A stretch of 64,000 nt of DNA from a virus, in IMG/VR virus record IMGVR_UViG_3300045988_175036, positions 1 to 64,000 of that record; one strand, given 5' to 3'. The notes under the pieces are model-generated. The model was not told where the DNA came from, did not search any database, and saw only the letters and a program-made list of their open reading frames with translations. Both the position numbers and the translations under genes were made by a program. Each line of letters opens with the position of its first letter. Position 1 is the first letter of the stretch. Positions 2,271 to 12,867 of this stretch are shown here, in pieces.

Positions 2271-2315
2271 GTCACGTAATGTGACATTTCTGCGCACGCT
2301 GTCATTTTACATGAC
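2271..2315. promoter_or_regulatory. two GTCAY-N5-RTGAC inverted repeats (candidate operators)
   Basis: GTCACGTAATGTGAC at 2271-2285 and GTCATTTTACATGAC at 2301-2315, just upstream of the 2232-2260 promoter. Confidence 0.6.
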
Positions 2316-2688: not shown

Positions 2689-2707
2689 TTAGACGTGAAA
2701 CGTCTAA
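2689..2707. promoter_or_regulatory. TTAGACG-N5-CGTCTAA inverted repeat (left-most copy)
   Basis: TTAGACG-TGAAA-CGTCTAA, immediately downstream (minus sense) of the 2705-2735 terminator. Confidence 0.8.
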
Positions 2708-2735
2708 TAAAAAAAGAGTGATTAAATCACTCTTT
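2705..2735 (-). terminator. rho-independent terminator closing the leftward cassette series
   Basis: Minus strand: AAAGAGTGAT-TTA-ATCACTCTTT followed by TTTTTTATT. Confidence 0.8.
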
Positions 2736-2739
2736 ATCA

Positions 2740-2838
2740 TTATCCGAATTGGATAAAATTAGAATCTCCGCTTGCTTTCCAGGGGTGGTTGATACCCATG
2801 CGCTTGCACCAAAAATAAGCCTTAATTCTTCTAATCAT
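2740..2838 (-). CDS. small hypothetical protein (32 aa)
   Basis: AAAGGAAG RBS, ATG at 2838, translation MIRRIKAYFWCKRMGINHPWKASGDSNFIQFG. It sits between a consensus promoter and a terminator. It is below the 60-aa cutoff of the supplied ORF track. Confidence 0.45.
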   Translation of the reverse strand: MIRRIKAYFWCKRMGINHPWKASGDSNFIQFG

Positions 2839-2887
2839 TTTTATTACTTCCTTTCACTCTGGTTGTTTCTTTCAACCTTGTAACTAG

Positions 2888-2944
2888 ATTATAATATAAG
2901 AAATTGAATTTGTCAAGAACTTTTTTTAGACGGTTTACGTCTAA
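2888..2944 (-). promoter_or_regulatory. early cassette control region (promoter plus TTAGACG-N5-CGTCTAA)
   Basis: -10 TATAAT 2888-2893; -35 TTGACA 2911-2916 (17-nt spacer); inverted repeat TTAGACG-GTTTA-CGTCTAA 2926-2944. Confidence 0.75.
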
Positions 2945-2950
2945 AAATGC

Positions 2951-2979
2951 GTAAAAGAAAAGGACACATAATGTGTCCT
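2951..2979 (-). terminator. rho-independent terminator after 2995..3747
   Basis: Minus strand: AGGACAC-ATTAT-GTGTCCT followed by TTTCTTTTAC. Confidence 0.65.
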
Positions 2980-2994
2980 TTTCCTCTTTATGTG

Positions 2995-3747
2995 TCAACG
3001 CACCACGAATTTATTCTTTGTCTTGTAATACGTCGCGCGCGTTCCTTCGACGATAATTTTTTCACCCGGCAAGTCAATGGTGAACTCGCGTGTCACTTTA
3101 CGTTCAATAGAACGCTTTGCCTGATAGTCTCCATTCAAATCGGCACCACGGTCAAGGCAAGTAAACAAAATTTCTGCTTCGATTTCGCTGTCAGAAAGTG
3201 CGGTATGGTCTTCGGTGAATGACGTGTCAGAACGGATGTAACGTGTCAATGCTTCGGCAGTTGTGGAATAATGCCCGCTTTCAGTGAAAGCATTATTTTC
3301 TTCACACCATGCGCGGAATGTGTCATCAATCATAAAATGATGGACAAAACCGCGGATATCAGAAATAGGAACGGTTTCAAAAGGATTTATGACTTTGAAC
3401 CAATCGCAATTGAAATTGAAAACTTTTTCATCGAAAGCGGAATTGTAAGCAAACGCGCGTTCAACTTCATAATTGCGGAAATCACGGAGCATCTGCTGTG
3501 TTACATAACCGAACTTTTCCATTCGGATGGTTCGTGCTCTCAAAGCGCCAACATAAATAGAACGCTTGTTTGCGTAGTATGCAGTATTGAAAAGCGGGAG
3601 ATTATGCCAAATCTGCTCAATGACAAATTCACGCTTTACAAGGCAGGCGCGGGATTCTGTATCAAGAATCAGATAGCCGACATTATAACAAAACATCTTA
3701 TTTTCTTCAATTCCTGTCGTTTCAGTGTCGAATACACAAATTTTCAT
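2995..3747 (-). CDS. DEDDh-type 3'-5' exonuclease (DnaQ/epsilon-like), 250 aa
   Basis: ExoI FDTETTG near the N-terminus, ExoII YNSAFDEKVF, ExoIII HTALSDSEIE. RBS GAAAGGA. Confidence 0.75.
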   Translation of the reverse strand: MKICVFDTETTGIEENKMFCYNVGYLILDTESRACLVKREFVIEQIWHNLPLFNTAYYANKRSIYVGALRARTIRMEKFGYVTQQMLRDFRNYEVERAFAYNSAFDEKVFNFNCDWFKVINPFETVPISDIRGFVHHFMIDDTFRAWCEENNAFTESGHYSTTAEALTRYIRSDTSFTEDHTALSDSEIEAEILFTCLDRGADLNGDYQAKRSIERKVTREFTIDLPGEKIIVEGTRATYYKTKNKFVVR

Positions 3748-3806
3748 TTTTCAAAGTCCTTTCATATTTCATTGATGGGTCTTTCGTCCTCTATCAACGT
3801 AACCAT

Positions 3807-3895
3807 ATTATAGCATAGAAAAGGGATTTTGTCAAGAACTTTTTTTTGTCACGTAAGACGACGCTCGGCCGAGGTTTTAGACGATGGACGTCTAA
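3807..3895 (-). promoter_or_regulatory. early cassette control region
   Basis: -10 TATAAT 3807-3812; -35 TTGACA 3830-3835 (17 nt); degenerate GTCACGTAAGACGAC 3848-3862; inverted repeat TTAGACG-ATGGA-CGTCTAA 3877-3895. Confidence 0.75.
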
Positions 3896-3912
3896 GGTAG
3901 AATGAATGGGAA

Positions 3913-3933
3913 GAGGACGCGTTATGCGTCCTC
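3913..3933 (-). terminator. hairpin overlapping the stop codon of 3922..4092 (weak U-run)
   Basis: GAGGACGC / GCGTCCTC stem with TAA (3922-3924) in the loop. The downstream run TTCCCATTCATT is only moderately U-rich. Confidence 0.4.
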
Positions 3934-4092
3934 AGAAAAATCGCCTACGACAGAAAACCATACCTTACGGTATTCTGCTTTATAGACTTCTTGACTAACT
4001 TCTGTGAATCCTACTGTCGATAGTCTTTTTGCTTCTGATTCACTTGTCGTGCAAGTCAATCCACCTGTTTGCTTATTGATAAAATATTTCAT
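3922..4092 (-). CDS. hypothetical protein (56 aa)
   Basis: ACGGAGAA RBS precedes the ATG at 4092. The ORF track's 4110 start is a TTG lying upstream of that RBS. C-terminus ..SEDA. Confidence 0.6.
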   Translation of the reverse strand: MKYFINKQTGGLTCTTSESEAKRLSTVGFTEVSQEVYKAEYRKVWFSVVGDFSEDA

Positions 4093-4121
4093 TTCGAATT
4101 CTCCGTTCAATTTGTATCTTT

Positions 4122-4177
4122 ATTATACTACTTTTTTAGATTTTGTCAAGAAGAATTTTTAGACGTATTTCGTCTAA
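4122..4177 (-). promoter_or_regulatory. early cassette control region
   Basis: -10 TATAAT 4122-4127; -35 TTGACA 4144-4149 (16 nt); inverted repeat TTAGACG-TATTT-CGTCTAA 4159-4177. Confidence 0.75.
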
Positions 4178-4182
4178 AATCT

Positions 4183-4214
4183 TGAAAAAAAGAGGGTGAC
4201 GCTTTACGCGTCAC
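4183..4214 (-). terminator. rho-independent terminator with the stop codon of 4204..4587 in its loop
   Basis: GTGACGC (4196-4202) / GCGTCAC (4208-4214); TAA at 4204-4206 in the loop. On the minus strand it is followed by CCTCTTTTTTTC. Confidence 0.75.
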
Positions 4215-4587
4215 TTTCCTCCTTTTCCTTTTCGCGTTCCTCGCGCTTGCGCTTTGCTTCGGCGCGATTCTTTTCATCTCGTGCGATTTTTTCGGCTTTC
4301 TTCTTTGCGGTTTCGGCCTTCTTCGCGCGCTTTGCTTCGGTTTCCTGTGCGTAGTTCTGCGCTTCCTCATAACCGTCATAAGGAATATAACATTTATTTT
4401 CCTTATCGCGTTCGCCCTTCGGAATACTAAAAGCGATATTCAAATATCCTTCATCATCGCCACGCGCCCACGGGATGGAGATTGTTCCGCTTTTGACCTG
4501 TAACACATCTTCGCCCTTGCTCTCGAACAGTTCGCGCACGGCAGACATAAATTCCTCGCGGATTTCAGTTTCAACTTTACTTGCCAT
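4204..4587 (-). CDS. hypothetical protein (127 aa) with a highly charged K/E/R/A C-terminal half
   Basis: AAGGAAG RBS, ATG at 4587, C-terminus ..EESDA. Confidence 0.7.
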   Translation of the reverse strand: MASKVETEIREEFMSAVRELFESKGEDVLQVKSGTISIPWARGDDEGYLNIAFSIPKGERDKENKCYIPYDGYEEAQNYAQETEAKRAKKAETAKKKAEKIARDEKNRAEAKRKREEREKEKEESDA

Positions 4588-4622
4588 AGTTTTTGACTTC
4601 CTTTCTTTTATTTGGTAACTAG

Positions 4623-4721
4623 ATTATACCATAAATTTTTCAAAAAGTCAAGTATTTGAAGAAAAAAATTTTTGGCGCGTTAGATTGCATTCTCGAAGGA
4701 CTTTAGACGTATAACGTCTAA
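4623..4721 (-). promoter_or_regulatory. early cassette control region
   Basis: -10 TATAAT 4623-4628; -35 TTGACT 4646-4651 (17 nt); inverted repeat TTAGACG-TATAA-CGTCTAA 4703-4721. Confidence 0.7.
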
Positions 4722-4751
4722 AAATTTCTAAAGGGAAAGGCGAACCTAACC

Positions 4752-4949
4752 CTATTTTTCCTTTTCATCAATAAAAATTTCTTCATCGAGAAATTCCAAG
4801 CGATAAGTTTTTTCCTGGACAAGATAAGTTTTACAATGCGGACATTTGATAAAATACGAGTAATAATAATTATCATTTACTACTTCTTCAGTGGACTTGT
4901 AACAATTCTGAAATTCATCAAAGCGATTCTGACAATTTGGACAATACAT
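4752..4949 (-). CDS. small zinc-ribbon protein (65 aa)
   Basis: AAAGGAG RBS before the ATG at 4949. Motifs CPNC ... CPHC (CxxC-x35-CxxC). Confidence 0.65.
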   Translation of the reverse strand: MYCPNCQNRFDEFQNCYKSTEEVVNDNYYYSYFIKCPHCKTYLVQEKTYRLEFLDEEIFIDEKEK

Positions 4950-4978
4950 TTTAAAAGCTCCTTTCACTTGATATCTTT

Positions 4979-5035
4979 ATTATAGCAGAAACTTATGAAA
5001 AAGTCAAGAGAAACTTTTAGACGTTCTTCGTCTAA
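4979..5035 (-). promoter_or_regulatory. early cassette control region
   Basis: -10 TATAAT 4979-4984; -35 TTGACT 5002-5007 (17 nt); inverted repeat TTAGACG-TTCTT-CGTCTAA 5017-5035. Confidence 0.75.
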
Positions 5036-5042
5036 ATTGGTT

Positions 5043-5074
5043 CATAAAAAAGGACGTCACTTTATGTGACGTCC
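5043..5074 (-). terminator. rho-independent terminator after 5082..5474
   Basis: GGACGTCAC (5052-5060) / GTGACGTCC (5066-5074), followed on the minus strand by TTTTTTATG. Confidence 0.75.
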
Positions 5075-5081
5075 CGTTCGT

Positions 5082-5474
5082 TTACTCTACGTTGTTCGGC
5101 TCGGCGTCGCTCGGTTCGGCGTCTGCGAGGGAATAGCCCTTTGCCTTTCCCTTTCCCTTTACCTTGACTTCAACAGAAGTCACTTCACCGGACTTCTCAA
5201 GAATCCGGAGCAGAGAAGAACACTTCTGAACGTTCTTCAGTTCCGGCTTTGCATCAAAGAGGTCAGACGCGGTGATGTGGTGGTCAGCGGTGGCGAGAAC
5301 TTCGCGCACGATGGGCAGGAGCGCTTCGTTCTCCTTCTGCGCCTTCGTCGGTTTCGAAGAGCGCTCGGCGTTCTTCTTGTCCATTGCGGACAGGAGCGCG
5401 GCAGCCTTCTCAGAGATTTCAGCGGAAACGTTTTCCATGGACAGGATAGCATTGTAGAATTCACGAGTAGTCAT
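5082..5474 (-). CDS. hypothetical small DNA-binding-like protein (130 aa), paralog of 1717..2085
   Basis: Collinear similarity to 1717..2085 as described under that feature. AAAGGGG RBS. Confidence 0.7.
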   Translation of the reverse strand: MTTREFYNAILSMENVSAEISEKAAALLSAMDKKNAERSSKPTKAQKENEALLPIVREVLATADHHITASDLFDAKPELKNVQKCSSLLRILEKSGEVTSVEVKVKGKGKAKGYSLADAEPSDAEPNNVE

Positions 5475-5553
5475 AATAGACCCCTTTCATTTTAGCGACG
5501 GTCGCCACCCTATTTTTTATATTCAAGAGGTTTCCTCTCTTGATTACGCTTTT

Positions 5554-5737
5554 ATTATACCATAGATTTTTGAATTTGTCAAGAGGAAATTTTATTTTTT
5601 CAATTTCTTTTTTGTTTCTTTCCCTCTTGACATTATGGATTATATCATAATCTGCGCGAAAAGTCAAGAAGAAATTTTAGAAATTTTGTCACATAACGTG
5701 ACTTCGCGCGAGAAAGATTTAGACGAAGGACGTCTAA
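5554..5737 (-). promoter_or_regulatory. tandem-promoter control region with both palindrome types
   Basis: Proximal promoter: -10 TATAAT 5554-5559, -35 TTGACA 5577-5582. Distal promoter: -10 TATAAT 5639-5644, -35 TTGACT 5662-5667. GTCACATAACGTGAC at 5688-5702. TTAGACG-AAGGA-CGTCTAA at 5719-5737. Confidence 0.7.
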
Positions 5738-5749
5738 TTCAAGAGAGAA

Positions 5750-5777
5750 AGAAAAAAGAGGACGTTTACACGTCCTC
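5750..5777 (-). terminator. rho-independent terminator with the stop codon of 5766..5969 in its loop
   Basis: GAGGACG (5758-5764) / CGTCCTC (5771-5777); TAA at 5766-5768; U-run from the top-strand A-run 5752-5757. Confidence 0.7.
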
Positions 5778-5969
5778 TTCTCCAAAGAAATCTCTTAAAA
5801 CTGGAAGATAATTGTATCTAAAAAATGATTGAGCGGTAAAAAGATGGTCTGAAAGTTCTTGAAGTTCTGCCGCTTCTTCTTTACTTATAGTTTCTTTTGC
5901 TTGAGCAACTTCTATTGAGAGTTCTTCAATTTCGTCTACCATATTTCTAAATTTTTTAGTAAGATTCAT
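5766..5969 (-). CDS. hypothetical protein (67 aa)
   Basis: AAAGGAG RBS, ATG at 5969, C-terminus ..EEDV. Confidence 0.65.
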   Translation of the reverse strand: MNLTKKFRNMVDEIEELSIEVAQAKETISKEEAAELQELSDHLFTAQSFFRYNYLPVLRDFFGEEDV

Positions 5970-5997
5970 TTTTATTCTCCTTTCATTTGGTAATTAC

Positions 5998-6054
5998 ATT
6001 ATATCATAAAGAAATAAAAAAATCAAGAAAAATTTTTAGACGATAAACGTCTAA
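5998..6054 (-). promoter_or_regulatory. early cassette control region
   Basis: -10 TATAAT 5998-6003; -35 TTGATT 6021-6026 (17 nt); inverted repeat TTAGACG-ATAAA-CGTCTAA 6036-6054. Confidence 0.7.
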
Positions 6055-6057
6055 TTC

Positions 6058-6091
6058 AAGAGAGAAAGAAAAGAGGCGCTTTACGCGCCTC
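6058..6091 (-). terminator. rho-independent terminator after 6103..6387
   Basis: GAGGCGC (6073-6079) / GCGCCTC (6085-6091), followed on the minus strand by TTTTCTTTCTCTCTT. Confidence 0.7.
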
Positions 6092-6102
6092 AAAAAGATA
6101 TA

Positions 6103-6387
6103 TTACATTTTATTTTGCTCCTTTTCGTTGAGAATGTCAAAACATTTATTTTCATCAACTCCAATAAAAGTTACTTTACAAGAAACAGAATAGAATTTCC
6201 CACTTTTAAAGCTTGCTTCCCATTTTGCTACATATTTAAGACCATTGTTATCGTTTCGCCATTCTCCCGTTACCGTGCTTGTGATATATTTTCTTGCTAC
6301 TTTGTCTTTGACGTGGTTTTTCGCCATTACCATAGCCTGCTGAAGGTTGATAAAATAATATCCTCTTACGCGATAAATCATAGTCAT
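6103..6387 (-). CDS. hypothetical protein (94 aa)
   Basis: AAAGGAG RBS, ATG at 6387. Confidence 0.65.
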   Translation of the reverse strand: MTMIYRVRGYYFINLQQAMVMAKNHVKDKVARKYITSTVTGEWRNDNNGLKYVAKWEASFKSGKFYSVSCKVTFIGVDENKCFDILNEKEQNKM

Positions 6388-6461
6388 TAGAAATTCTCCT
6401 TTTGTGGTAAGTCACAACCTATTTTTATTTTGTTGAGTTCCTGTCTCAACTTTGTAATTAG

Positions 6462-6528
6462 ATTATAACATAAAAGTTTTGATTTGTCAATAATTTTTCG
6501 AAAAATTTTTTAGACGGTCTACGTCTAA
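6462..6528 (-). promoter_or_regulatory. early cassette control region
   Basis: -10 TATAAT 6462-6467; -35 TTGACA 6485-6490 (17 nt); inverted repeat TTAGACG-GTCTA-CGTCTAA 6510-6528. Leader hairpin GTTGAG..CTCAAC at 6432-6450. Confidence 0.75.
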
Positions 6529-6560
6529 TAGGAAAGGGAATACGCTTATCGCGTATTCCC
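6529..6560 (-). terminator. hairpin with the stop codon of 6546..6899 in its loop
   Basis: GGGAATACGC (6536-6545) / GCGTATTCCC (6551-6560); TAA at 6546-6548; short U-run TTTCCTA. Confidence 0.55.
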
Positions 6561-6899
6561 GCAAATAATTCTTTTCATTATCTGTTCAATAATACTGTGG
6601 CTATTCGGGATACAAAAAGGTAGTTTTATATTCAGTCTTTGTGCCTCGTTGAGAAGGTCTGCGCGAATGTTATCATATCCCGCAATGCTACTCAAAAGAC
6701 ACGTTCTTGCAATTTCTGCGTCGTGGTCTGCCTTTTTCCTGTCTGGCGTATTTTCTGGATAGAGATTGGTAGAGAGGATTGTTGCATAGGTGTCAAAAAC
6801 ACGCATTTCAAGTGTAAAAGTGCTTTCATGTAAACGTTCAATCCGATTATTGATTGCGGGATTGGTAGTTGGCTGAATTTTCTTTTTCTTTTTGAACAT
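6546..6899 (-). CDS. hypothetical protein (117 aa)
   Basis: AAGGAAG RBS, ATG at 6899. Confidence 0.65.
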   Translation of the reverse strand: MFKKKKKIQPTTNPAINNRIERLHESTFTLEMRVFDTYATILSTNLYPENTPDRKKADHDAEIARTCLLSSIAGYDNIRADLLNEAQRLNIKLPFCIPNSHSIIEQIMKRIICGNTR

Positions 6900-6933
6900 T
6901 TTGGAAACTTCCTTTCTTTTGTTTGGTAATTGT

Positions 6934-6990
6934 ATTATATCATAAGCATTTCAATTTGTCAATAATTTTTTTTAGACGGTTCACGTCTAA
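6934..6990 (-). promoter_or_regulatory. early cassette control region
   Basis: -10 TATAAT 6934-6939; -35 TTGACA 6957-6962 (17 nt); inverted repeat TTAGACG-GTTCA-CGTCTAA 6972-6990. Confidence 0.75.
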
Positions 6991-6991
6991 G

Positions 6992-7028
6992 ACAAAAAAC
7001 AGAAAAAGGTGACGCTCTATGCATCACC
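6992..7028 (-). terminator. rho-independent terminator overlapping the stop codon of 7024..7476
   Basis: GGTGACGC (7008-7015) / GCATCACC (7021-7028), with one G.U pair. Followed on the minus strand by TTTTTCTGTTTTTTG. Confidence 0.7.
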
Positions 7029-7476
7029 TAATTGAATGAAGGAAGTCAAAAATCTCTGTCGCGTCATATGCCACCATTCCTGCGTGCGTCCATTCTTCAC
7101 GATTTGGCTTTTCATCATCAAAAAGGAAACCGCCGCGTAACGTGCCAACTTCGCTTTTTGGTGTGCCGTAATGAACAATACAGATTTCATCGAATCGAAC
7201 GCTTTTTAAATGGCGCGAAAGCCATTCCATCTTCGCGCGGCGAACATCTTCAAGAAATTTTTCATCGCGGTCTTTGCTTCCCCATGATACTACACGAATT
7301 TTCCATCCCTTGCGCTGAATCGCGTTCAAACGTCGCGCCAGTCTTGAAAGATTGAGAAGTGCGCGCGCGTCTCTATATGGGCTTGCATCATGCGCGCGGA
7401 TTTTCGGAAGCCAATTTTCAACGCCGTAGAAATCGACAATTGTGCCGTCCATATCCAAACTAATAATTTTTTCCAT
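7024..7476 (-). CDS. HAD-superfamily phosphatase, 5'(3')-deoxyribonucleotidase-like (150 aa)
   Basis: N-terminal DMDGTIVDF (the DxDxT motif I), WGSK, and C-terminal FLFDDEKPN, as in NT5C-type nucleotidases. Confidence 0.55.
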   Translation of the reverse strand: MEKIISLDMDGTIVDFYGVENWLPKIRAHDASPYRDARALLNLSRLARRLNAIQRKGWKIRVVSWGSKDRDEKFLEDVRRAKMEWLSRHLKSVRFDEICIVHYGTPKSEVGTLRGGFLFDDEKPNREEWTHAGMVAYDATEIFDFLHSIR

Positions 7477-7505
7477 TTCAAAAACTCCTTTCTTTTTGTA
7501 TCTAA

Positions 7506-7605
7506 ATTATATCATAGTTTTCTTTTTTTGTCAATAAGAATTTTTATAAGTTTTTGTCATATAAGATGACATCAACAGTGGGAGTTTTAGACGATGAACG
7601 TCTAA
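7506..7605 (-). promoter_or_regulatory. early cassette control region with both palindrome types
   Basis: -10 TATAAT 7506-7511; -35 TTGACA 7529-7534 (17 nt); GTCATATAAGATGAC 7556-7570; TTAGACG-ATGAA-CGTCTAA 7587-7605. Confidence 0.75.
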
Positions 7606-7635
7606 TAAAAAAAGAGGACGCTTTATGCGTCCTCT
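7604..7635 (-). terminator. rho-independent terminator with the stop codon of 7623..7988 in its loop
   Basis: AGAGGACGC (7613-7621) / GCGTCCTCT (7627-7635); TAA at 7623-7625; followed on the minus strand by TTTTTTTATT. Confidence 0.8.
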
Positions 7636-7988
7636 CCTACGATTTCCCGAATATCATCAGGAAGTAGTTCACAAATTCTTGACATAATGTCAACCGCAGT
7701 CAACCATCCTTCAACTTCGTCTCCAACTTCTTCTTCATTGACAAGCGGCGCGCCCAGTGCTTCAATCAGCCCGCGCTCATGCCCATAACTTCCATAATGG
7801 CACACGCAATCCGCTACCCGCTCGCCCGTGCAAGCGTCCATAAAGATAACTTGAGGGCGCCCGCAAAATTTCACAACAGAATAAGTATATTTTATTGGTG
7901 GGAAAATCTTCAAGTAGTTAATAAGTTTGTCCATTTCTGTATTTTCAGGAATACCGCCATACATTTCTTCGAGTGCTTTATAATCCAT
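7623..7988 (-). CDS. hypothetical protein (121 aa)
   Basis: AAAGGAG RBS, ATG at 7988, C-terminus ..GEDA. Confidence 0.65.
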   Translation of the reverse strand: MDYKALEEMYGGIPENTEMDKLINYLKIFPPIKYTYSVVKFCGRPQVIFMDACTGERVADCVCHYGSYGHERGLIEALGAPLVNEEEVGDEVEGWLTAVDIMSRICELLPDDIREIVGEDA

Positions 7989-8022
7989 TTTAGAATCTCC
8001 TTTTCTTTTATTTGGTAACTAA

Positions 8023-8080
8023 ATTATAACACAAAAAATAAAAAAAGTCAAGAACTTTTTATTAGACGAAGCACGTCTAA
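8023..8080 (-). promoter_or_regulatory. early cassette control region
   Basis: -10 TATAAT 8023-8028; -35 TTGACT 8046-8051 (17 nt); inverted repeat TTAGACG-AAGCA-CGTCTAA 8062-8080. Confidence 0.75.
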
Positions 8081-8089
8081 TTTCCCACT

Positions 8090-8299
8090 AGAAGAAACGC
8101 GCGGTGATGGTTGCCCGCGCATTTCAATGTAAACAAAACAAAATCATGAAGAATTATTTTAGAAAGGAGATTTCCATCACACTGACCTTCTGTCAAAATC
8201 AGTGAAATGTATAACTAATTTTCTCCAACCATCAGAAGAAAATTAGAACCAATGAGAAGATTTTTCCTAACCCACCCACAACCATCTTCTCTTGATTAC
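8090..8299 (-). ncRNA. candidate phage-encoded structured ncRNA of about 210 nt (no credible ORF)
   Basis: Lies between a consensus promoter (-10 at 8306-8311, -35 at 8329-8334) and a GC-rich terminator: top-strand arms CGCGCGG 8098-8104 and CCGCGC 8114-8119, then a minus-strand GTTTCTTCT run. Internal hairpins at 8254-8291, 8215-8246 and 8180-8204. The longest ATG ORF is 17 codons and has no properly spaced RBS. Confidence 0.5.
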
Positions 8300-8305
8300 G
8301 TAATT

Positions 8306-8459
8306 ATTATAGCATGTTTCATGTGGTTTGTCAAGAGGAATTTCAAAATTTCTGGAAATTATTTTTGTAAAATTTTCTGAAATTCTTTCCTCTAACTATG
8401 TATATCATACTATATTTTCTGAAAAAGTCAAGAAAAACTTTTAGACGAAAAACGTCTAA
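8306..8459 (-). promoter_or_regulatory. tandem-promoter control region upstream of the candidate ncRNA
   Basis: Proximal promoter: -10 TATAAT 8306-8311, -35 TTGACA 8329-8334 (17 nt). Distal promoter: -10 TATGAT 8404-8409, -35 TTGACT 8426-8431 (16 nt). TTAGACG-AAAAA-CGTCTAA at 8441-8459. TTYCAGAAAWT direct repeats lie between the two promoters. Confidence 0.7.
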
Positions 8460-8465
8460 ATTGAT

Positions 8466-8499
8466 GTAGAAAAAGAGTTGACGCATTACGCGTCAACTC
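8466..8499 (-). terminator. rho-independent terminator with the stop codon of 8486..8884 in its loop
   Basis: GAGTTGACGC (8475-8484) / GCGTCAACTC (8490-8499); TAA at 8486-8488; followed on the minus strand by TTTTTCTAC. Confidence 0.75.
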
Positions 8500-8884
8500 C
8501 ATAGGTCTTCATTTCTTTTTTCAATTCTTCAATTTTATCAGCAGGAAGATACCAACGATAATGTTCTTCATCATAAAGATAAAGCCCAGTCGTTTTTCGA
8601 TTATTGCCGCCGTCGATGCTCCACGGAGAGATAATTCCACAGAATCTGAAAACTTCCTCGACAAAAGGAATTGCGCTCTCATCTTCAATATAAATTCCCC
8701 AAATCTCATCATAAAAACTAGCAATTACAGTATCAAAAGAAAGAACTTGTTTGTTCCCATTGAAAAAGATGACGCCGTTGAGATGGTCACCGATTTTTTC
8801 TAAAATTTCGTGTCGCTGGCATTCAATTTCATTGTCAAAAACCTGCCCGCAGAGGTCGCAAACATATTTTGTAATAGTAGTCAT
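8486..8884 (-). CDS. hypothetical protein (132 aa) with an N-terminal C2H2-like zinc finger
   Basis: CDLC..(x12)..H.ILEKIGDH pattern (YVCDLCGQVFDNEIECQRHE). AAAGGGG RBS. C-terminus ..GVDA. Confidence 0.65.
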   Translation of the reverse strand: MTTITKYVCDLCGQVFDNEIECQRHEILEKIGDHLNGVIFFNGNKQVLSFDTVIASFYDEIWGIYIEDESAIPFVEEVFRFCGIISPWSIDGGNNRKTTGLYLYDEEHYRWYLPADKIEELKKEMKTYGVDA

Positions 8885-8913
8885 TTTTTATTCCCCTTTC
8901 ATTTGGTATTTGT

Positions 8914-8971
8914 ATTATATCATAGAATTTTTCTTTTGTCAAGAATTTTTATTTAGACGGCAAACGTCTAA
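8914..8971 (-). promoter_or_regulatory. early cassette control region
   Basis: -10 TATAAT 8914-8919; -35 TTGACA 8937-8942 (17 nt); inverted repeat TTAGACG-GCAAA-CGTCTAA 8953-8971. Confidence 0.75.
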
Positions 8972-8977
8972 AATTTT

Positions 8978-9012
8978 CTAGGAGAGAAATGACGCGTTAT
9001 GCGTCATCTCTC
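8978..9012 (-). terminator. hairpin with the stop codon of 8997..9227 in its loop
   Basis: ATGACGC (8989-8995) / GCGTCAT (9001-9007), extendable with a bulge. TAA at 8997-8999. Moderate U-run. Confidence 0.55.
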
Positions 9013-9227
9013 AAGATTTCTTCGTTCAAAATATAACAATTGCCGTTGTCTTGAATTTCGATATTGCTCAAAACATTTTCCAATTCATCAACGGCTCTTT
9101 GTAATTCGTTGTTCCGTGTAAATTGCAACGCATTTCTCAACCAGCACCGTGCGTTATTGATATCAGCAAATTCTTTGTCTGAAAAAGAAATCTGCCGTCT
9201 TTTGATGGTAATATTTTCAATCTTCAT
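8997..9227 (-). CDS. hypothetical protein (76 aa)
   Basis: GAAGGAG RBS. ATGA overlap with the upstream ORF. C-terminus ..RDDA. Confidence 0.65.
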   Translation of the reverse strand: MKIENITIKRRQISFSDKEFADINNARCWLRNALQFTRNNELQRAVDELENVLSNIEIQDNGNCYILNEEILRDDA

Positions 9228-9391
9228 TTCAAAAACACTCCTTCAAAAATTTTGAAAATATTCCAATTTGCGAGAAATGGCCGCGCGAAAATCACATTGA
9301 AATAAGAAAAAATAAGCCAAAGAATTACAAGGATTCCAATTACACCAAAGAAATTTCCAAAAAATTTTTTAGTCTTCATAGACTTGCGCAT
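9224..9391 (-). CDS. small membrane protein (55 aa; alternative upstream start at 9442)
   Basis: Hydrophobic stretch FFGNFFGVIGILVILWLIFSYF. ATG at 9391 chosen because the upstream part of the track ORF overlaps the better-supported 9369..9506 ORF. Confidence 0.5.
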   Translation of the reverse strand: MRKSMKTKKFFGNFFGVIGILVILWLIFSYFNVIFARPFLANWNIFKIFEGVFLK

Positions 9392-9506
9392 AACAAATCC
9401 ACTCCAAAATGTAAAGATTAGCACGTCGCATTGCATCTTCAAAAGTCAATCCAAAAACAACTGCGCGTTTAGAAGTTTTGACGTTCTTGATAAAGTAAGT
9501 ATTCAT
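9369..9506 (-). CDS. small hypothetical protein (45 aa)
   Basis: AAAGGAGA RBS 6 nt before the ATG at 9506, directly downstream of a consensus promoter. Translation MNTYFIKNVKTSKRAVVFGLTFEDAMRRANLYILEWICYAQVYED. Below the track cutoff. Confidence 0.5.
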   Translation of the reverse strand: MNTYFIKNVKTSKRAVVFGLTFEDAMRRANLYILEWICYAQVYED

Positions 9507-9529
9507 TGTTTTCTCCTTTCTTTGGTTAT

Positions 9530-9586
9530 ATTATATCAGAATTTTTTGAAAAAGTCAAGAATTTTTTTTAGACGAATTACGTCTAA
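9530..9586 (-). promoter_or_regulatory. early cassette control region (drives the three-ORF unit 9506->8997)
   Basis: -10 TATAAT 9530-9535; -35 TTGACT 9553-9558 (17 nt); inverted repeat TTAGACG-AATTA-CGTCTAA 9568-9586. Confidence 0.75.
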
Positions 9587-9601
9587 GAAATTAGAGCTGA
9601 T

Positions 9602-9775
9602 TCAAGTCCAGCTCTTTCCTTCCAGATTTGGCAAAATTGTCAGCTTATAAACGCAGCTTCCAGCTTGTATATAGCTTTGGATGAGAGAAGGCAGCTCATC
9701 CAAAGTACCAATGTTGTCTTCGCTGATACCATGCTGGCCCTTGAAGCCGTTGTCATGTTCTACCAAAACTGTCAT
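9602..9775 (-). CDS. small hypothetical protein (57 aa)
   Basis: GGAAGGAG RBS, ATG at 9775, translation MTVLVEHDNGFKGQHGISEDNIG... Followed by the hairpin AGAGCTG..CAGCTCT (about 9592-9614). Below the track cutoff. Confidence 0.5.
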   Translation of the reverse strand: MTVLVEHDNGFKGQHGISEDNIGTLDELPSLIQSYIQAGSCVYKLTILPNLEGKSWT

Positions 9776-9852
9776 GATATATTACTCCTTCCATGTTATA
9801 CGACATTCTAATAAACTCTGGACAATATTCATTTTCCGCCGTCATTGCCTAT

Positions 9853-10030
9853 ATTATATCACATAATAGCGAAAAGTCAAGTCCTCTAACATGACAAAAT
9901 GGCGTCTAATAGTTAGACGAACTCCGTCTAAAAATGAATAAAAGTCACATAAGATGACTTAGACGAGCCACGTCTAAAAGTCATACTACATTGCTTTTAG
10001 ACGTGACCGGGTGATGTCATGTAAAGTGAC
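9853..10030 (-). promoter_or_regulatory. promoter with a dense upstream cluster of both palindrome types
   Basis: -10 TATAAT 9853-9858; -35 TTGACT 9875-9880 (16 nt). Half-site CGTCTAA 9903-9909. Full TTAGACG-N5-CGTCTAA at 9913-9931 and 9959-9977. GTCACATAAGATGAC 9944-9958. Half-site TTAGACG 9997-10003. GTCATGTAAAGTGAC 10016-10030. Confidence 0.7.
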
Positions 10031-10629: not shown

Positions 10630-11130
10630 TTAGAGCGCCCATCCATTGTCCAACCATTCGGAAAACGGCATTGCCTGCGCGCAGGCAACAGCGCGTTCAA
10701 GCATTTCAAGTAACTTGAAATACTTCTTGCCGTGCGGAGCATTCAGTTTACCATTCCAAAATGTTTGGATAGTTATTTTACGCTCCCCATTGCTACTAGT
10801 CTTTTCGCGGAGAAGTCCAGCTTCTGACAGGACTTCAAGAAAAGTGTCCCGTCTCATGACATAGGCTCTCTGCCCTGCCAATTCTTTGCCCGGATCGATG
10901 ACCGGGCAATAAATCACATAACGTGACCCCTTGACCAGCTTGTCACCTAACCGGCCAAGCTCGCCGGCCCCCGATTTGATTTCATAGCACTGCGCAGCAC
11001 GGCGCATATCCGTGCGACCGGGCGCCGCCACTTTAGATTTCATATGCAGCGTCTCTTTACAGAGACGTTCAAACGCCTTGCCGTTCCGCCCGCAGTCTGT
11101 ATCTAAATAATTGTACTTTTCAATATTCAT
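10630..11130 (-). CDS. hypothetical protein (166 aa) with a PD-(D/E)xK-like motif
   Basis: GRTDMRRAAQCYEIKSG fits D-x8-E-x-K. First gene of a three-gene unit with no internal promoter. Confidence 0.55.
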   Translation of the reverse strand: MNIEKYNYLDTDCGRNGKAFERLCKETLHMKSKVAAPGRTDMRRAAQCYEIKSGAGELGRLGDKLVKGSRYVIYCPVIDPGKELAGQRAYVMRRDTFLEVLSEAGLLREKTSSNGERKITIQTFWNGKLNAPHGKKYFKLLEMLERAVACAQAMPFSEWLDNGWAL

Positions 11131-11194: not shown

Positions 11195-11223
11195 ATTATA
11201 GCAATAGCGTCTAAGAATGTCAA
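11195..11223 (-). promoter_or_regulatory. leftward promoter of the divergent control region
   Basis: -35 TTGACA 11218-11223, 17-nt spacer, -10 TATAAT 11195-11200. A CGTCTAA half-site (11208-11214) sits inside the spacer. Confidence 0.7.
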
Positions 11224-11440
11224 CAACTTTTTTCACTAGTTTGTCGCATAACATTCCGTCAATTTCAACAAACTCAAGTCATGTTATATAGTAGGCTCTT
11301 GTGCAGAATGACGAACCGAAGAATGACGTATAACGGGGTGGGTTTTGTCGTTTGACATGACAAAATATAGACCGGGGTACATTTAGTAATTTTACTTTTT
11401 CTATGACGCGTTACATTTCGGGGCCTCGCAACTTTTCTCA

Positions 11441-11480
11441 CTGAAATTAGAAACTGAAATTAGAAACTGAAATTTCTCAC
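11441..11480. repeat. 13-bp tandem repeat CTGAAATTAGAAA x2.5, flanked by TCTCAC
   Basis: Units at 11441-11453 and 11454-11466, partial copy at 11467-11480. AAATTAGAAACT recurs at 11535-11546, downstream of the rightward -10. Confidence 0.8.
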
Positions 11481-11503: not shown

Positions 11504-11532
11504 TTGACTTCGCCCCAAAATTTCGTTATAAT
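11504..11532 (+). promoter_or_regulatory. rightward promoter at the head of the structural block
   Basis: -35 TTGACT 11504-11509, 17-nt spacer, -10 TATAAT 11527-11532. Confidence 0.65.
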
Positions 11533-11568: not shown

Positions 11569-12867
11569 ATGCCTAAACGAAATCGCTTACAGCTAGACTT
11601 CTCGCTTTCTTCGGCAGAAGAACGTCAAGTCTTTCTCACGAAATATCTTGAAACCTTAGCGTTTACGCCAACTTCATCCGAACTAGAGCTAATGGCCGAC
11701 TATGTTCTATGGGGAGATAAGAATTCTGACGAAACCATTGAACTAGAAACCTTCTGGAAAAAGAAAGAAAAAAAAGTCGAGTCTCTTGACGAATTACAAG
11801 AAAACCCCACTTTCCTCGAAGCACGTCTTGCTTCTCCTTACGTCGCTCCAAAAACTCAAAAAACGCGTCGAGTCTTTTCTCGTGAAGAAGCTCGCTCTTT
11901 CGCTTCTCCCTATGTGCTCGCGCACCTTGAAGACCTTTGGCGCGAAATTGATACGCTCGACCTCGAAACTCGCTTCTATGAAAACTTTATTGGCCGTCAG
12001 GCCAAGCCTCCCCGCAGTCAGCTCCTTGAACGTTTTACTTCGGCGGAAGCCGAAGAAATTCGCGCGCGCGCCCAATCGCTAACCGAATATGCTTACTTGA
12101 AGAAACGAAAACTTCTAGTTGAGAAACGTTCTGAACAATATCCATGGCGTGATACTTACGCGGCCCCTCTAATCCAGCGTCACACCCCCACTATTGTCCA
12201 AGACCCCGTACCTCCTCCGCTCCTAAACGCAGATATTCCCATTCTTCCACTCGGAAACCTCCCAATTCAACTGGCTCCAAAAATTTTCCCTTCCTCCGGT
12301 GAGTTTCCAACTCCCGGCACTCTAACCCCAGACGAAGAAAAGCTTCTCTCCAAAACCATCTGGCGCGAACCCTCAAATGCGCCGAACTCATTTGATTTCC
12401 GTGACCCAGCACACCTCGCTTCTTTTATCTCTCTTTATTCTGAGCTTTTGCCCGACCAAAACTCTGATGAAGGCCTTCAAGCCCTTTTTTCCACTTTTAC
12501 CTATTACCAAAAACTCGCACGACTTTCACCTCTCTACCTCGACATATTGCGCGCGAAGGTCGAACACGAAACCAACACTAAAATTGTAGAGAAGATAGCA
12601 TCAAAATACGGCAAATCCTATGGCGAAAATTATATTTCAACTCTTTATCGCCAAAAGATATTGCCAAAAATAGCCGCAGCGGCGTCCGCGCATTACCAAG
12701 TTACTTCGGAGTTATTTTTCCCCGAAAACTTCAAAACGTGTAAGGATTGCGCGCGCACGCTACTTAGGACTCCAGATTACTTTATGCGCAAAGCGAAATC
12801 TTCAGATGGCTTTTCACCCCGTTGCAAAGCTTGCGAAAAAGCGCTGCGCGAAAGGAGGAAAAATTGA
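11569..12867 (+). CDS. hypothetical protein (432 aa) with a C-terminal CxxC..CxxC zinc ribbon
   Basis: GGAGGG RBS. C-terminus CKDCARTLLRTPDYF...PRCKAC resembles the N-terminal ribbon of 13130..14125. Confidence 0.7.
   Translation: MPKRNRLQLDFSLSSAEERQVFLTKYLETLAFTPTSSELELMADYVLWGDKNSDETIELETFWKKKEKKVESLDELQENPTFLEARLASPYVAPKTQKTRRVFSREEARSFASPYVLAHLEDLWREIDTLDLETRFYENFIGRQAKPPRSQLLERFTSAEAEEIRARAQSLTEYAYLKKRKLLVEKRSEQYPWRDTYAAPLIQRHTPTIVQDPVPPPLLNADIPILPLGNLPIQLAPKIFPSSGEFPTPGTLTPDEEKLLSKTIWREPSNAPNSFDFRDPAHLASFISLYSELLPDQNSDEGLQALFSTFTYYQKLARLSPLYLDILRAKVEHETNTKIVEKIASKYGKSYGENYISTLYRQKILPKIAAAASAHYQVTSELFFPENFKTCKDCARTLLRTPDYFMRKAKSSDGFSPRCKACEKALRERRKN

Follow-up and report, generated by a model that had tools for sequence, protein, structure and literature searches.

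In the IncP plasmid RK2, the KorA/KorB system places one palindromic operator at many strong promoters for coordinated repression, with some of the sites just upstream of the -35 hexamer. In phage phi29, the small dimeric protein p4 binds an inverted repeat upstream of the strong sigma-A early promoters A2b and A2c, on a defined face of the helix, and represses through contact with RNA polymerase, leaving the core promoter unoccluded. Cluster A mycobacteriophages, such as L5 and Bxb1, carry dozens of near-identical stoperators in short intergenic regions; the stoperator motif differs between related phages and tracks the divergence of the repressor, and one site lies at the repressor promoter, where it serves autoregulation (PMC6550527, PMC9283540). 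In T4-type phages, units made of a terminator and an early promoter, the promoter-stem-loops (PeSLs), flank small variable open reading frames (ORFs) in a plastic region and mark the boundaries of insertions and deletions (indels) (PMC2839356, PMC4122927). Here, we analyze a palindrome, TTAGACG-N5-CGTCTAA, that recurs in the early region of an uncultured gut phage represented by IMG/VR record IMGVR_UViG_3300045988_175036, of which a stretch of 64,000 nucleotides (nt), positions 1 to 64,000, was studied (hereafter, the window). We class the system as a multi-site phage operator fused to PeSL-like cassettes, with a candidate regulator drawn from an uncharacterized protein family. The reading that we favor, and hold to be reasonably probable on the sequence evidence, is that a lineage-specific, dimeric operator–regulator pair controls the early arm, the regulator probably being the first early gene product, g166, and probably a repressor, and that the module around each site provides homology for the exchange of cassettes.

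An invariant palindrome before the early promoters

The window is part of a tailed phage that encodes a portal protein, a tape-measure protein, a ribonucleotide reductase and a RecJ-like exonuclease. Its early arm runs leftward over ~2.7–11.2 kb and is divergent from a sigma-factor-like gene (11569-12867) with a product of 432 amino acids (aa). The window has 21 near-consensus sigma-70-type promoters; the early arm holds 17 of them, on the minus strand, and the palindrome precedes 13 of these 17. The first-pass annotation had listed 17 copies of TTAGACG-N5-CGTCTAA at 2689-9977, and every one of its coordinates is an exact match, against a chance expectation of 0.00 in 100 dinucleotide shuffles of the window. 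With up to three mismatches allowed, the 64 kb contain no copy with one or two mismatches and three with three, one of which (11196-11214) is the half-site within the spacer of the first early promoter. Three lone half-sites reported in the early arm are likewise real (Table 1), and beyond 9977 the rest of the 64 kb has no full copy.

The order proposed for the minus strand also holds: a terminator hairpin with a T-run is followed by the palindrome, a TTGACA-17-TATAAT promoter, a Shine–Dalgarno sequence and the ORF. The description of all cassettes as monocistronic had to be given up, given that the cassette at 9568-8971 has three ORFs and that at 8441-8080 no convincing one, and the notion of a freely varying 5-nt center survives only in part, as position 8 is T in 14 of the 17 sites, and positions 8 and 12 are fixed per lineage in relatives. 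Nine sites of the window stand 9–10 nt from the -35 hexamer; the remaining distances are 19, 32, 41, 51, 51, 52 and 78 nt, and no promoter follows site 2689. Site 8441 is counted among the nine by its weaker promoter P1, TTGACT-16-TATGAT, which was read by eye; our scripts chose the stronger promoter 106 nt downstream.

Related phages made it possible to measure how strictly the arms are kept. In 61 array loci covering 510 kb, we found 511 exact sites, 15 with one mismatch and two with two. To avoid ascertainment bias, orthologous pairs were defined as window sites spanned by BLAST alignments; in the 76 pairs so defined, differences affect 4 of the 1064 arm positions (0.38%), against 16.1% of positions in the 5-nt center and 8.1% in the flanks, i.e., the arms are ~20–40 times as conserved as the flanks and center. 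Together with the single palindrome per genome and the other palindromes of sister lineages (described below), these invariant arms lend strong support to the earlier proposal of sequence-specific recognition over a generic hairpin. They also bear on the idea that the arms have no function of their own and that recombination or gene conversion keeps the module uniform, in a PeSL-type concerted evolution. Modules of ~60–90 bp are indeed common to neighboring cassettes, with indels falling between modules, but such a process would homogenize the center and flanks too, whereas variation is highest in the center (16%) and also affects the promoter hexamers, around arms that are invariant; nor does it explain why a half-site in the first promoter co-varies with palindrome type. 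A variable center between invariant arms rules out a simple concerted evolution of the module, and we consider this explanation extremely improbable.

The position of the site relative to the promoter was examined in 408 non-redundant sites, and the promoter is clear for 281 of these. Measured from the end of the site, the spacing to the -35 hexamer has its main peak at 7–10 nt (150 sites), followed by classes at 18–19, 28–33, 40–42 and 50–51 nt. In the 117 sites spaced by at least 14 nt, the Rayleigh peak, uncorrected for phylogeny, falls at a period of ~10.7–11.5 nt with a phase of 8.3–9.0, matching the main class. Independently, in the lineage with the GTAGTCT palindrome, the site lies 9 nt (seven times), 19, 20, 29 and 29 nt from the -35 hexamer. 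With a 17-bp spacer, sites of the main class have their center near -54, where they overlap the distal UP element region. The phasing is good but not conclusive evidence that a bound factor interacts with the polymerase, because it is uncorrected for phylogeny and because some of the long gaps hold a second motif of fixed size.

The first-pass annotation had also suggested a recombination boundary, and this idea finds support as a second property of the element, since breakpoints cluster at the palindrome and its module. Similarity to close relatives breaks at the regulatory module; for instance, relative L099 is missing two cassettes of the window, 5719-6036 and 6510-6972, and the alignments on either side overlap by 64–91 bp of repeated module. 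We counted 68 distinct internal alignment ends, of which 68% fall between -80 and +120 nt from a palindrome center (43% expected) and 14 fall exactly at palindrome edges (~1 expected), the edge effect being partly automatic because the palindrome is the only block common to all cassettes. In relatives, the stop codon lies in the loop of a perfect terminator hairpin for 119 of 419 non-redundant cassette ORFs. Many cassette proteins of the window lineage end in ...DA, with the stop codon in the hairpin loop of GAC GCN TAA NGCGTC (e.g., 4204-4230, 7623-7650 and 8486-8510). Stop codons placed inside terminators fit an exchange of cassettes at module boundaries. An analogy with integron attC sites was dropped: TTAGAC/GTCTAA in the arms resembles the cores GTTRRRY/RYYYAAC, but it is in inverted order, the bases beside it do not fit, and an integrase was not seen.

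Scanning IMG/VR for the exact pattern gave at least 118 stretches with the motif, 61 of which have 3–22 sites and belong to contigs of ~90–140 kb. The arrays define a group of more than 45 related viral contigs, with 4–36 sites per contig, and in every array the orientation is the same as that of the promoters. Among the matches listed from collections of bacterial genomes, arrays occur only on short phage-like contigs binned with metagenome-assembled genomes (MAGs) of Acutalibacteraceae, Ruminococcus, Eubacteriales and other Clostridia, which suggests the host range and, weakly, a non-integrating lifestyle. The matches listed for 185,579 species genomes included no recurrent sites in bona fide chromosomes of likely hosts; one of the species-genome scans also required a promoter by the motif. 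In the literature, the motif gave only unrelated primer matches.

Two cellular occurrences of related sequences are worth recording. TTAGACGTCSGACGTCTAA is the core of a longer hairpin found in several copies per genome in many MAGs of Patescibacteria, also called the candidate phyla radiation or CPR (L235-L308, e.g., L238, L245, L271, L268 and L304), including Giovannonibacteria, Nealsonbacteria, Wolfebacteria, Saccharibacteria and others; in genomes of ~1 Mb, such copy numbers greatly exceed chance. This hairpin shares the sequence of the phage element and resembles repetitive extragenic palindromic (REP) sequences or miniature inverted-repeat transposable elements (MITEs) in look. A single TTAGACGT-N3-ACGTCTAA site is conserved at L280 958-976 and at 13 other Paenarthrobacter/Arthrobacter loci, directly upstream of an operon for an MFS transporter and a GntR/FadR-type regulator and downstream of a PucR-type regulator gene; it is likely a cellular operator of the same sequence. 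A further match, on L092, has a full site within a promoter spacer; this high-GC contig is unrelated, and the match is probably due to chance.

Palindrome types in sister lineages and at the first promoter

Sister loci were gathered through the winged-helix protein gp130, a handle other than the motif, which yielded 73 gp130-anchored loci. Sister lineages share the layout of the window (terminator, palindrome, 7–10 nt, promoter) with other palindromes, each uniform within its genome. Beside the TTAGACG palindrome of the window (type A), these are type B (TTAGATG), TTAGATGT-N3-ACATCTAA, with 14 sites in L184; type C (TCGTACG), TCGTACGT-N3-ACGTACGA, in L207, L222 and L232; and type D (GTAGTCT), GTAGTCTG-N2-CAGACTAC, in L196 and L202. 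Thus, the putative operator has diversified under a constant architecture. No variant palindromes were present within the parts covered of L141 and L143. The GTATACG repeats of L185 and L188, considered as cassette operators, belong to tandem-repeat regions instead. The pairs L219/L222 and L186/L188 were considered as natural experiments and set aside, since the loci are gene-level mosaics from which no single differing gene can be isolated. As a separate observation, sister lineages of the same phage group (L174, L188, L205 and L224) are without g166 and carry a CCCGGGC element and A/T-rich palindromes (GTTAA...TTAAC, ATATATAATATAT) before equally strong early promoters, perhaps a comparable way of control that employs another regulator.

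The first, immediate-early promoter is the only early promoter without an upstream palindrome, and it carries one half-site in its spacer instead (Table 1). This half-site is kept in all relatives, including distant ones, although the neighboring spacer bases and its offset vary. In types A, B, C and D alike, the lineage's own half-site lies in or beside the spacer of this promoter, as in TTGA-CATCTAA-...-TATATT (type B, L184), TTGTAA-tgggcgt-TCGTACG-tgc-TAATAT (type C, L232) and TTGACT-ttatgtc-GTAGTCT-gc-TATAAT (type D, L202). A protein on the first-promoter half-site must compete with the polymerase, which is our main reason for preferring repression.

Could the palindrome act as RNA, or as a single-strand hairpin, i.e., as a back-up terminator, an RNase III/Y processing site or a stabilizer of read-through transcripts? 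It stands directly after each terminator, and a hairpin of 6–7 bp is possible, but its energy is only -6.2 to -7.2 kcal/mol, and no U-tract follows on either strand, where the sequence is A-rich; a hairpin so weak and without a U-tract is not an intrinsic terminator. The site also lies upstream of the promoters, outside the main transcripts, so that it would be transcribed only by read-through. Covariation of positions 8 and 12, strong when phages are pooled, at first spoke for base pairing; it was rejected as a lineage effect, since it is gone within genomes. The eighth base pair is fixed per genome (T.A in ~25 contigs, A.T in ~11 and C.G in one), and in the window lineage it is asymmetric and unpaired. 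A sequence that is uniform within genomes and different between them points to co-evolving, sequence-specific recognition, whereas base pairing by itself predicts otherwise. The stems are identical and free of compensatory changes, unlike the neighboring terminators, and no Rfam family matches the palindrome. We consider the hairpin explanation very improbable. Accordingly, of the recognizers listed in the first-pass annotation, a DNA-binding regulator fits best, in view of the phased place upstream of the -35 hexamer and the co-varying half-site, and the option of an RNase or processing site is disfavored by the location upstream of promoters, the weak hairpin and the missing U-tract.

Candidate recognizers and competing explanations

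Because the specificity is particular to each phage lineage, the recognizer is most likely phage-encoded. The best candidate is g166, the first gene of the early arm. Genes of the g166 family head the arrays in types A, B and C, never with a full palindrome upstream, and at the head of type D arrays stands a positional analogue in which the E...D...E-x-K residues are spaced alike. Of the 73 gp130-anchored loci, those with type A–D arrays have g166 in 23 of 27 cases and those without in none of 46 (Fisher p = 3e-15). This association does not reduce to one phylogenetic split, since array and non-array lineages are interleaved in gp130 sequences. Each g166 cluster (at least 60% identity) goes with a single operator type, including the T.A, A.T and asymmetric subtypes, and identity across types reaches 59% at most. 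When one type A phage is compared with type C phages, g166 is the most diverged shared protein, with 30–41% identity against 47–82% for the others. Residues E21, D41, E50 and K52 are invariant in 28 diverse homologues, and the E...D...E-x-K arrangement, seen by eye, resembles a PD-(D/E)xK site. The best structural match to g166 is a virome protein in BFVD (E = 2e-9, template modeling score 0.73) that bears the depositor label ‘restriction endonuclease’. Given that a phage protein is the recognizer, we put the chance that it is g166 at about one half.

Other early proteins fared less well as candidates. Four families (the DEDD-type exonuclease-like protein, gp127, the gp130/gp122 paralogs and the NT5C-type nucleotidase) are found in 33–35 of 46 array contigs. 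The AlphaFold2 model of gp130 (mean predicted local distance difference test, pLDDT, 82.5) matches winged-helix domains of Fur/PerR, PadR/LmrR and Orc1, with a best E of 2e-3, and the gp130/gp122 model has the three-helix bundle and beta-hairpin wing of a winged-helix fold. As the determinant of specificity, gp130/gp122 was rejected, since near-identical helix and wing go with different palindromes (L219 vs. L222; L186 vs. L188, at 98% identity). Similarly, gp127 is 99% identical in L186, which has TTAGACG arrays, and L188, which has none. Both the gp130/gp122 winged-helix proteins and gp127 are acidic, whereas g166 is basic. The 432-aa sigma-like protein, g331, the nucleotidase and the exonuclease were set aside, none being specifically tied to the arrays; these four and gp127 are equally frequent in array and non-array loci.

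In the reading that we favor, TTAGACG-N5-CGTCTAA would be a double-stranded-DNA operator for a two-fold-symmetric, sequence-specific protein. The site would sit ~54 bp upstream of the transcription start at nearly every early promoter of the host sigma-A type, on one helix face relative to RNA polymerase, so that the bound protein could control the whole early arm together. The direction would most likely be repression, which would end a transient early burst, since the promoters are near-consensus as they stand and a protein on the half-site in the core spacer of the first promoter would clash with the polymerase. Made from the only early promoter without an upstream palindrome, g166 would act at the 16 control regions that lie downstream, and the half-site would let it regulate its own promoter. 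The terminator–operator–promoter module, repeated about every 450 bp, would supply homology for the gain, loss and replacement of cassettes, as proposed for the PeSLs of T4. A more far-reaching version, which we consider possible but on balance doubtful, is that g166 represents a new family of small basic proteins with a restriction-endonuclease-like motif, recruited as the master regulator of a virulent phage's early program, its specificity switched repeatedly together with the operator, so as to yield ‘heterotypic’ early-control groups among gut Clostridia phages, and its sites doubling as joints for cassette exchange.

Several points weigh against the favored reading. Computation establishes the sites, the selection on them, their position and phasing, the lineage switches of specificity, the covariation of the half-site, the distribution of g166 with the arrays and the clustering of breakpoints; protein binding, the role of g166 as the reader and repression are what we infer from these patterns. 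Lone half-sites elsewhere in the genome are not depleted (5 observed against 6.5 expected), and a single half-site may be weak by itself. The helical phasing could come in part from fixed-length inserts such as the second motif, and a center near -54 is an unusual position for a simple repressor. The match between g166 clusters and operator types could reflect shared ancestry rather than function, and the first gene of type D arrays is a positional analogue only, with an hhalign probability of 2% against g166. The g166 model (pLDDT 90) has no significant match in the PDB (best E = 0.12), and g166 and its 357 homologues have no Pfam domain and no informative name; the apparent nuclease-like status of g166 rests on the motif seen by eye and one depositor label. 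Finally, an invariant E, D and E-x-K would be expected of an active nuclease rather than of a pure repressor.

This last point leads to the possibility that g166 is an active site-specific endonuclease or nickase, and that the arrays are not operators but sites of cleavage or recombination that drive the exchange of cassettes, or the processing of the early region. Interrupted palindromes are typical targets of restriction-type dimers, and the invariant residues, the label on the closest structural match, the breakpoints exactly at palindrome edges and the strict co-occurrence of g166 with arrays would all suit such an enzyme. Yet a phage that cut its own essential early arm at 17 sites would destroy itself unless protected, and no protection mechanism was seen; a cleavage site needs neither a phased distance to the -35 hexamer nor a half-site in the g166 promoter; the edge breakpoints are expected anyway, the palindrome being the only perfectly conserved block; and PDB comparison left the nuclease fold unconfirmed. 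We judge this possibility unlikely, and think much the same of a reader encoded by the Clostridia host, for example a global regulator or a nucleoid protein, with palindrome types mirroring hosts. Small cellular winged-helix regulators could plausibly read such sites; the motif is identical in phages whose sigma-like proteins are only 37% identical, and the same palindrome with 8-bp arms occurs as a single operator-like site at the MFS/GntR-type operon in at least 14 Paenarthrobacter/Arthrobacter genomes. Among the matches listed, arrays are confined to phage-like contigs and the likely-host chromosomes show no recurrent sites, which is at odds with a host reader. Moreover, the operator type tracks the presence and cluster of the phage protein g166, and lineages with near-identical other early genes differ in their palindrome, which a phage-borne determinant explains more easily.

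Other features of the window and relation to known systems

The coordinates of the control regions and their cassettes are collected in Table 1, where motif 2 denotes a second palindromic motif, GTCAY-N5-RTGAC. This motif has seven copies in the window (0.09 expected), all in the early arm, at 2271-2285, 2301-2315, 5056-5070, 5688-5702, 7556-7570, 9944-9958 and 10016-10030, and 40 copies in 90 kb of close relatives (0.3 expected). It occupies the gap between palindrome and promoter in long-gap cassettes and is possibly a second operator class. The 8080-8441 cassette has tandem promoters, and a leader, CGTAATCAAGAGA (minus strand; 8288-8300), follows the second of them; the same leader stands after the second promoter of the gp130 cassette (5536-5548). 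A related leader, GTCAAGAGGGAAA, recurs after promoters in L184, L202 and L232. Leaders of the CGTAATCAAGAGA type, which gave no Rfam match, may be a small RNA or a regulatory leader.

Table 1. Control regions, cassettes and first promoter of the early arm (window positions; distances run from the palindrome to the -35 hexamer)
Feature	Position	Strand	Control region	ORF and remarks
Palindrome copy 17	2689..2707		array end, after the terminator of a 32-aa ORF; no promoter within 140 nt downstream	
Palindrome copy 16	2926..2944		9 nt before TTGACA-17-TATAAT (2916-2888)	2740-2838
Palindrome copy 15	3877..3895		41 nt (-35 at 3835-3830); motif-2-like element in gap	2995-3747, DEDD-type exonuclease-like, 250 aa
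Palindrome copy 14	4159..4177		9 nt	3922-4092
Palindrome copy 13	4703..4721		51 nt	4204-4587, gp127 family
Palindrome copy 12	5017..5035		9 nt	4752-4949, zinc-ribbon protein
Palindrome copy 11	5719..5737		51 nt; motif 2 in gap; tandem promoters	5082-5474, gp130, winged helix
Palindrome copy 10	6036..6054		9 nt	5766-5969; cassette absent in L099
Palindrome copy 9	6510..6528		19 nt	6103-6387
Palindrome copy 8	6972..6990		9 nt	6546-6899; cassette absent in L099
Palindrome copy 7	7587..7605		52 nt; motif 2 in gap	7024-7476, NT5C-type 5'-nucleotidase
Palindrome copy 6	8062..8080		10 nt	7623-7988
Palindrome copy 5	8441..8459		9 nt before TTGACT-16-TATGAT; then consensus promoter 8334-8306	no convincing ORF
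Palindrome copy 4	8953..8971		10 nt	8486-8884
Palindrome copy 3	9568..9586		9 nt	three ORFs: 9369-9506, 9224-9391 and 8997-9227
Compound control region after the first operon	9903..10003		full palindromes 9913-9931 and 9959-9977, half-sites 9903-9909 and 9997-10003 and motif 2 at 9944-9958, all upstream of promoter 9880-9853; another motif 2 copy just outside (10016-10030)	
g166, first early gene	10630..11130	-		166 aa, isoelectric point 9.3; best candidate palindrome reader
First (immediate-early) promoter	11195..11223	-	TTGACA-ttc-TTAGACG-ctattgc-TATAAT, one half-site in spacer (11208-11214)	
Two motif 2 copies	2271..2315		upstream of promoter (2260)	gp122 winged-helix paralog gene, 1717-2085

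No phage in GenBank is similar to the window at the DNA level, and, judged by the portal protein, the closest phage with a name is phAss-1 (31% identity). Neither the 64 kb of the window nor the scans of bacterial genomes showed an integrase or a prophage context. The phage appears to be virulent, with a genome of ~100–120 kb. The early arm products include the DEDD-type exonuclease-like protein, the NT5C-type 5'-deoxynucleotidase and g166 with its nuclease motif, a set that recalls the host-DNA degradation functions among the pre-early genes of phage T5. For the small early proteins, Pfam, PHROGs and PADLOC returned nothing informative. Elsewhere in the window, a perfect 13-nt direct repeat, ACTGAAATTAGAA, present 2.7 times at 11440-11474, lies just upstream of the plus-strand promoter (-35 at 11504) of the sigma-factor-like gene. 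Between the array end and the gp122 gene, CAGCTTAT (ATAAGCTG on the minus strand) occurs five times (2170, 2414, 2443, 2470 and 2501), with four of the five copies at a spacing of 27–31 nt in an iteron-like arrangement. The apparently non-coding stretch 448-1400 comprises ~950 bp of low-complexity sequence, 84% purine on the plus strand, with many short tandem repeats and five copies of GGGCGTA (545, 747, 869, 949 and 1100). At the left edge of the window, a 122-aa ORF (21-389) has a weak PHROG match to homing endonucleases (E = 0.002).

If the favored reading is true, a large and abundant clade of uncultured phages of gut and rumen Clostridia, with genomes of ~100–120 kb, would run its host-takeover genes through one operator–regulator pair. 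Multi-operator control is known in temperate actinophages and in plasmids; its new form here would be a symmetric site phased before every strong early promoter of an apparently virulent phage with PeSL-like cassettes. The specificity series (TTAGACG with T, A or C at the eighth position, TTAGATG, TCGTACG and GTAGTCT) would offer a ready system for studying how protein and site switch together. The PeSL idea becomes testable in a second, unrelated phage group. In metagenomic phage contigs, the signature of palindrome, 9 nt and TTGACA flags early regions and, indirectly, Firmicute-type hosts, and the compact, insulated promoter–operator–terminator parts could serve the synthetic biology of Clostridia.

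How does this locus compare with the systems described at the outset? RK2 KorA/KorB differs from the phage arrays in that it belongs to a plasmid, employs ParB-type and helix-turn-helix (HTH) proteins, and has 12 sites at varied distances with no cassettes and no link to terminators. Unlike the regulator proposed here, phi29 p4 acts on three promoters in one control region, from sites further upstream, and has no sequence or structure similarity to g166. The analogy with PeSLs, drawn in the first-pass annotation, is apt for the composite layout and the breakpoints: nearly every cassette has a terminator hairpin with a T-run followed by TTGACA-17-TATAAT, and the module stands at indel boundaries. 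The elements are not PeSLs in the strict sense. In a PeSL, the conserved stem-loop is the terminator itself, loosely conserved, e.g., as G(n)-loop-C(n); here, by contrast, the terminators vary, and they are joined by a palindrome of 19 bp that is no terminator and stands apart from the terminator stem-loop. This palindrome is invariant and specific to the lineage, implying a dedicated recognizer.

Stoperators are asymmetric sites for a monomeric HTH repressor, set in one orientation throughout the genome of a temperate phage, where they stop elongating polymerase. The sites described here are, unlike stoperators, two-fold symmetric over 14–16 bp, confined to the early arm and phased upstream of promoters, and no HTH repressor was found with them. 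What the two share are many near-identical sites and a motif that differs between related phages, and the half-site at the first promoter would correspond to the stoperator at the repressor promoter; in logic, stoperators are the closest documented analogue.

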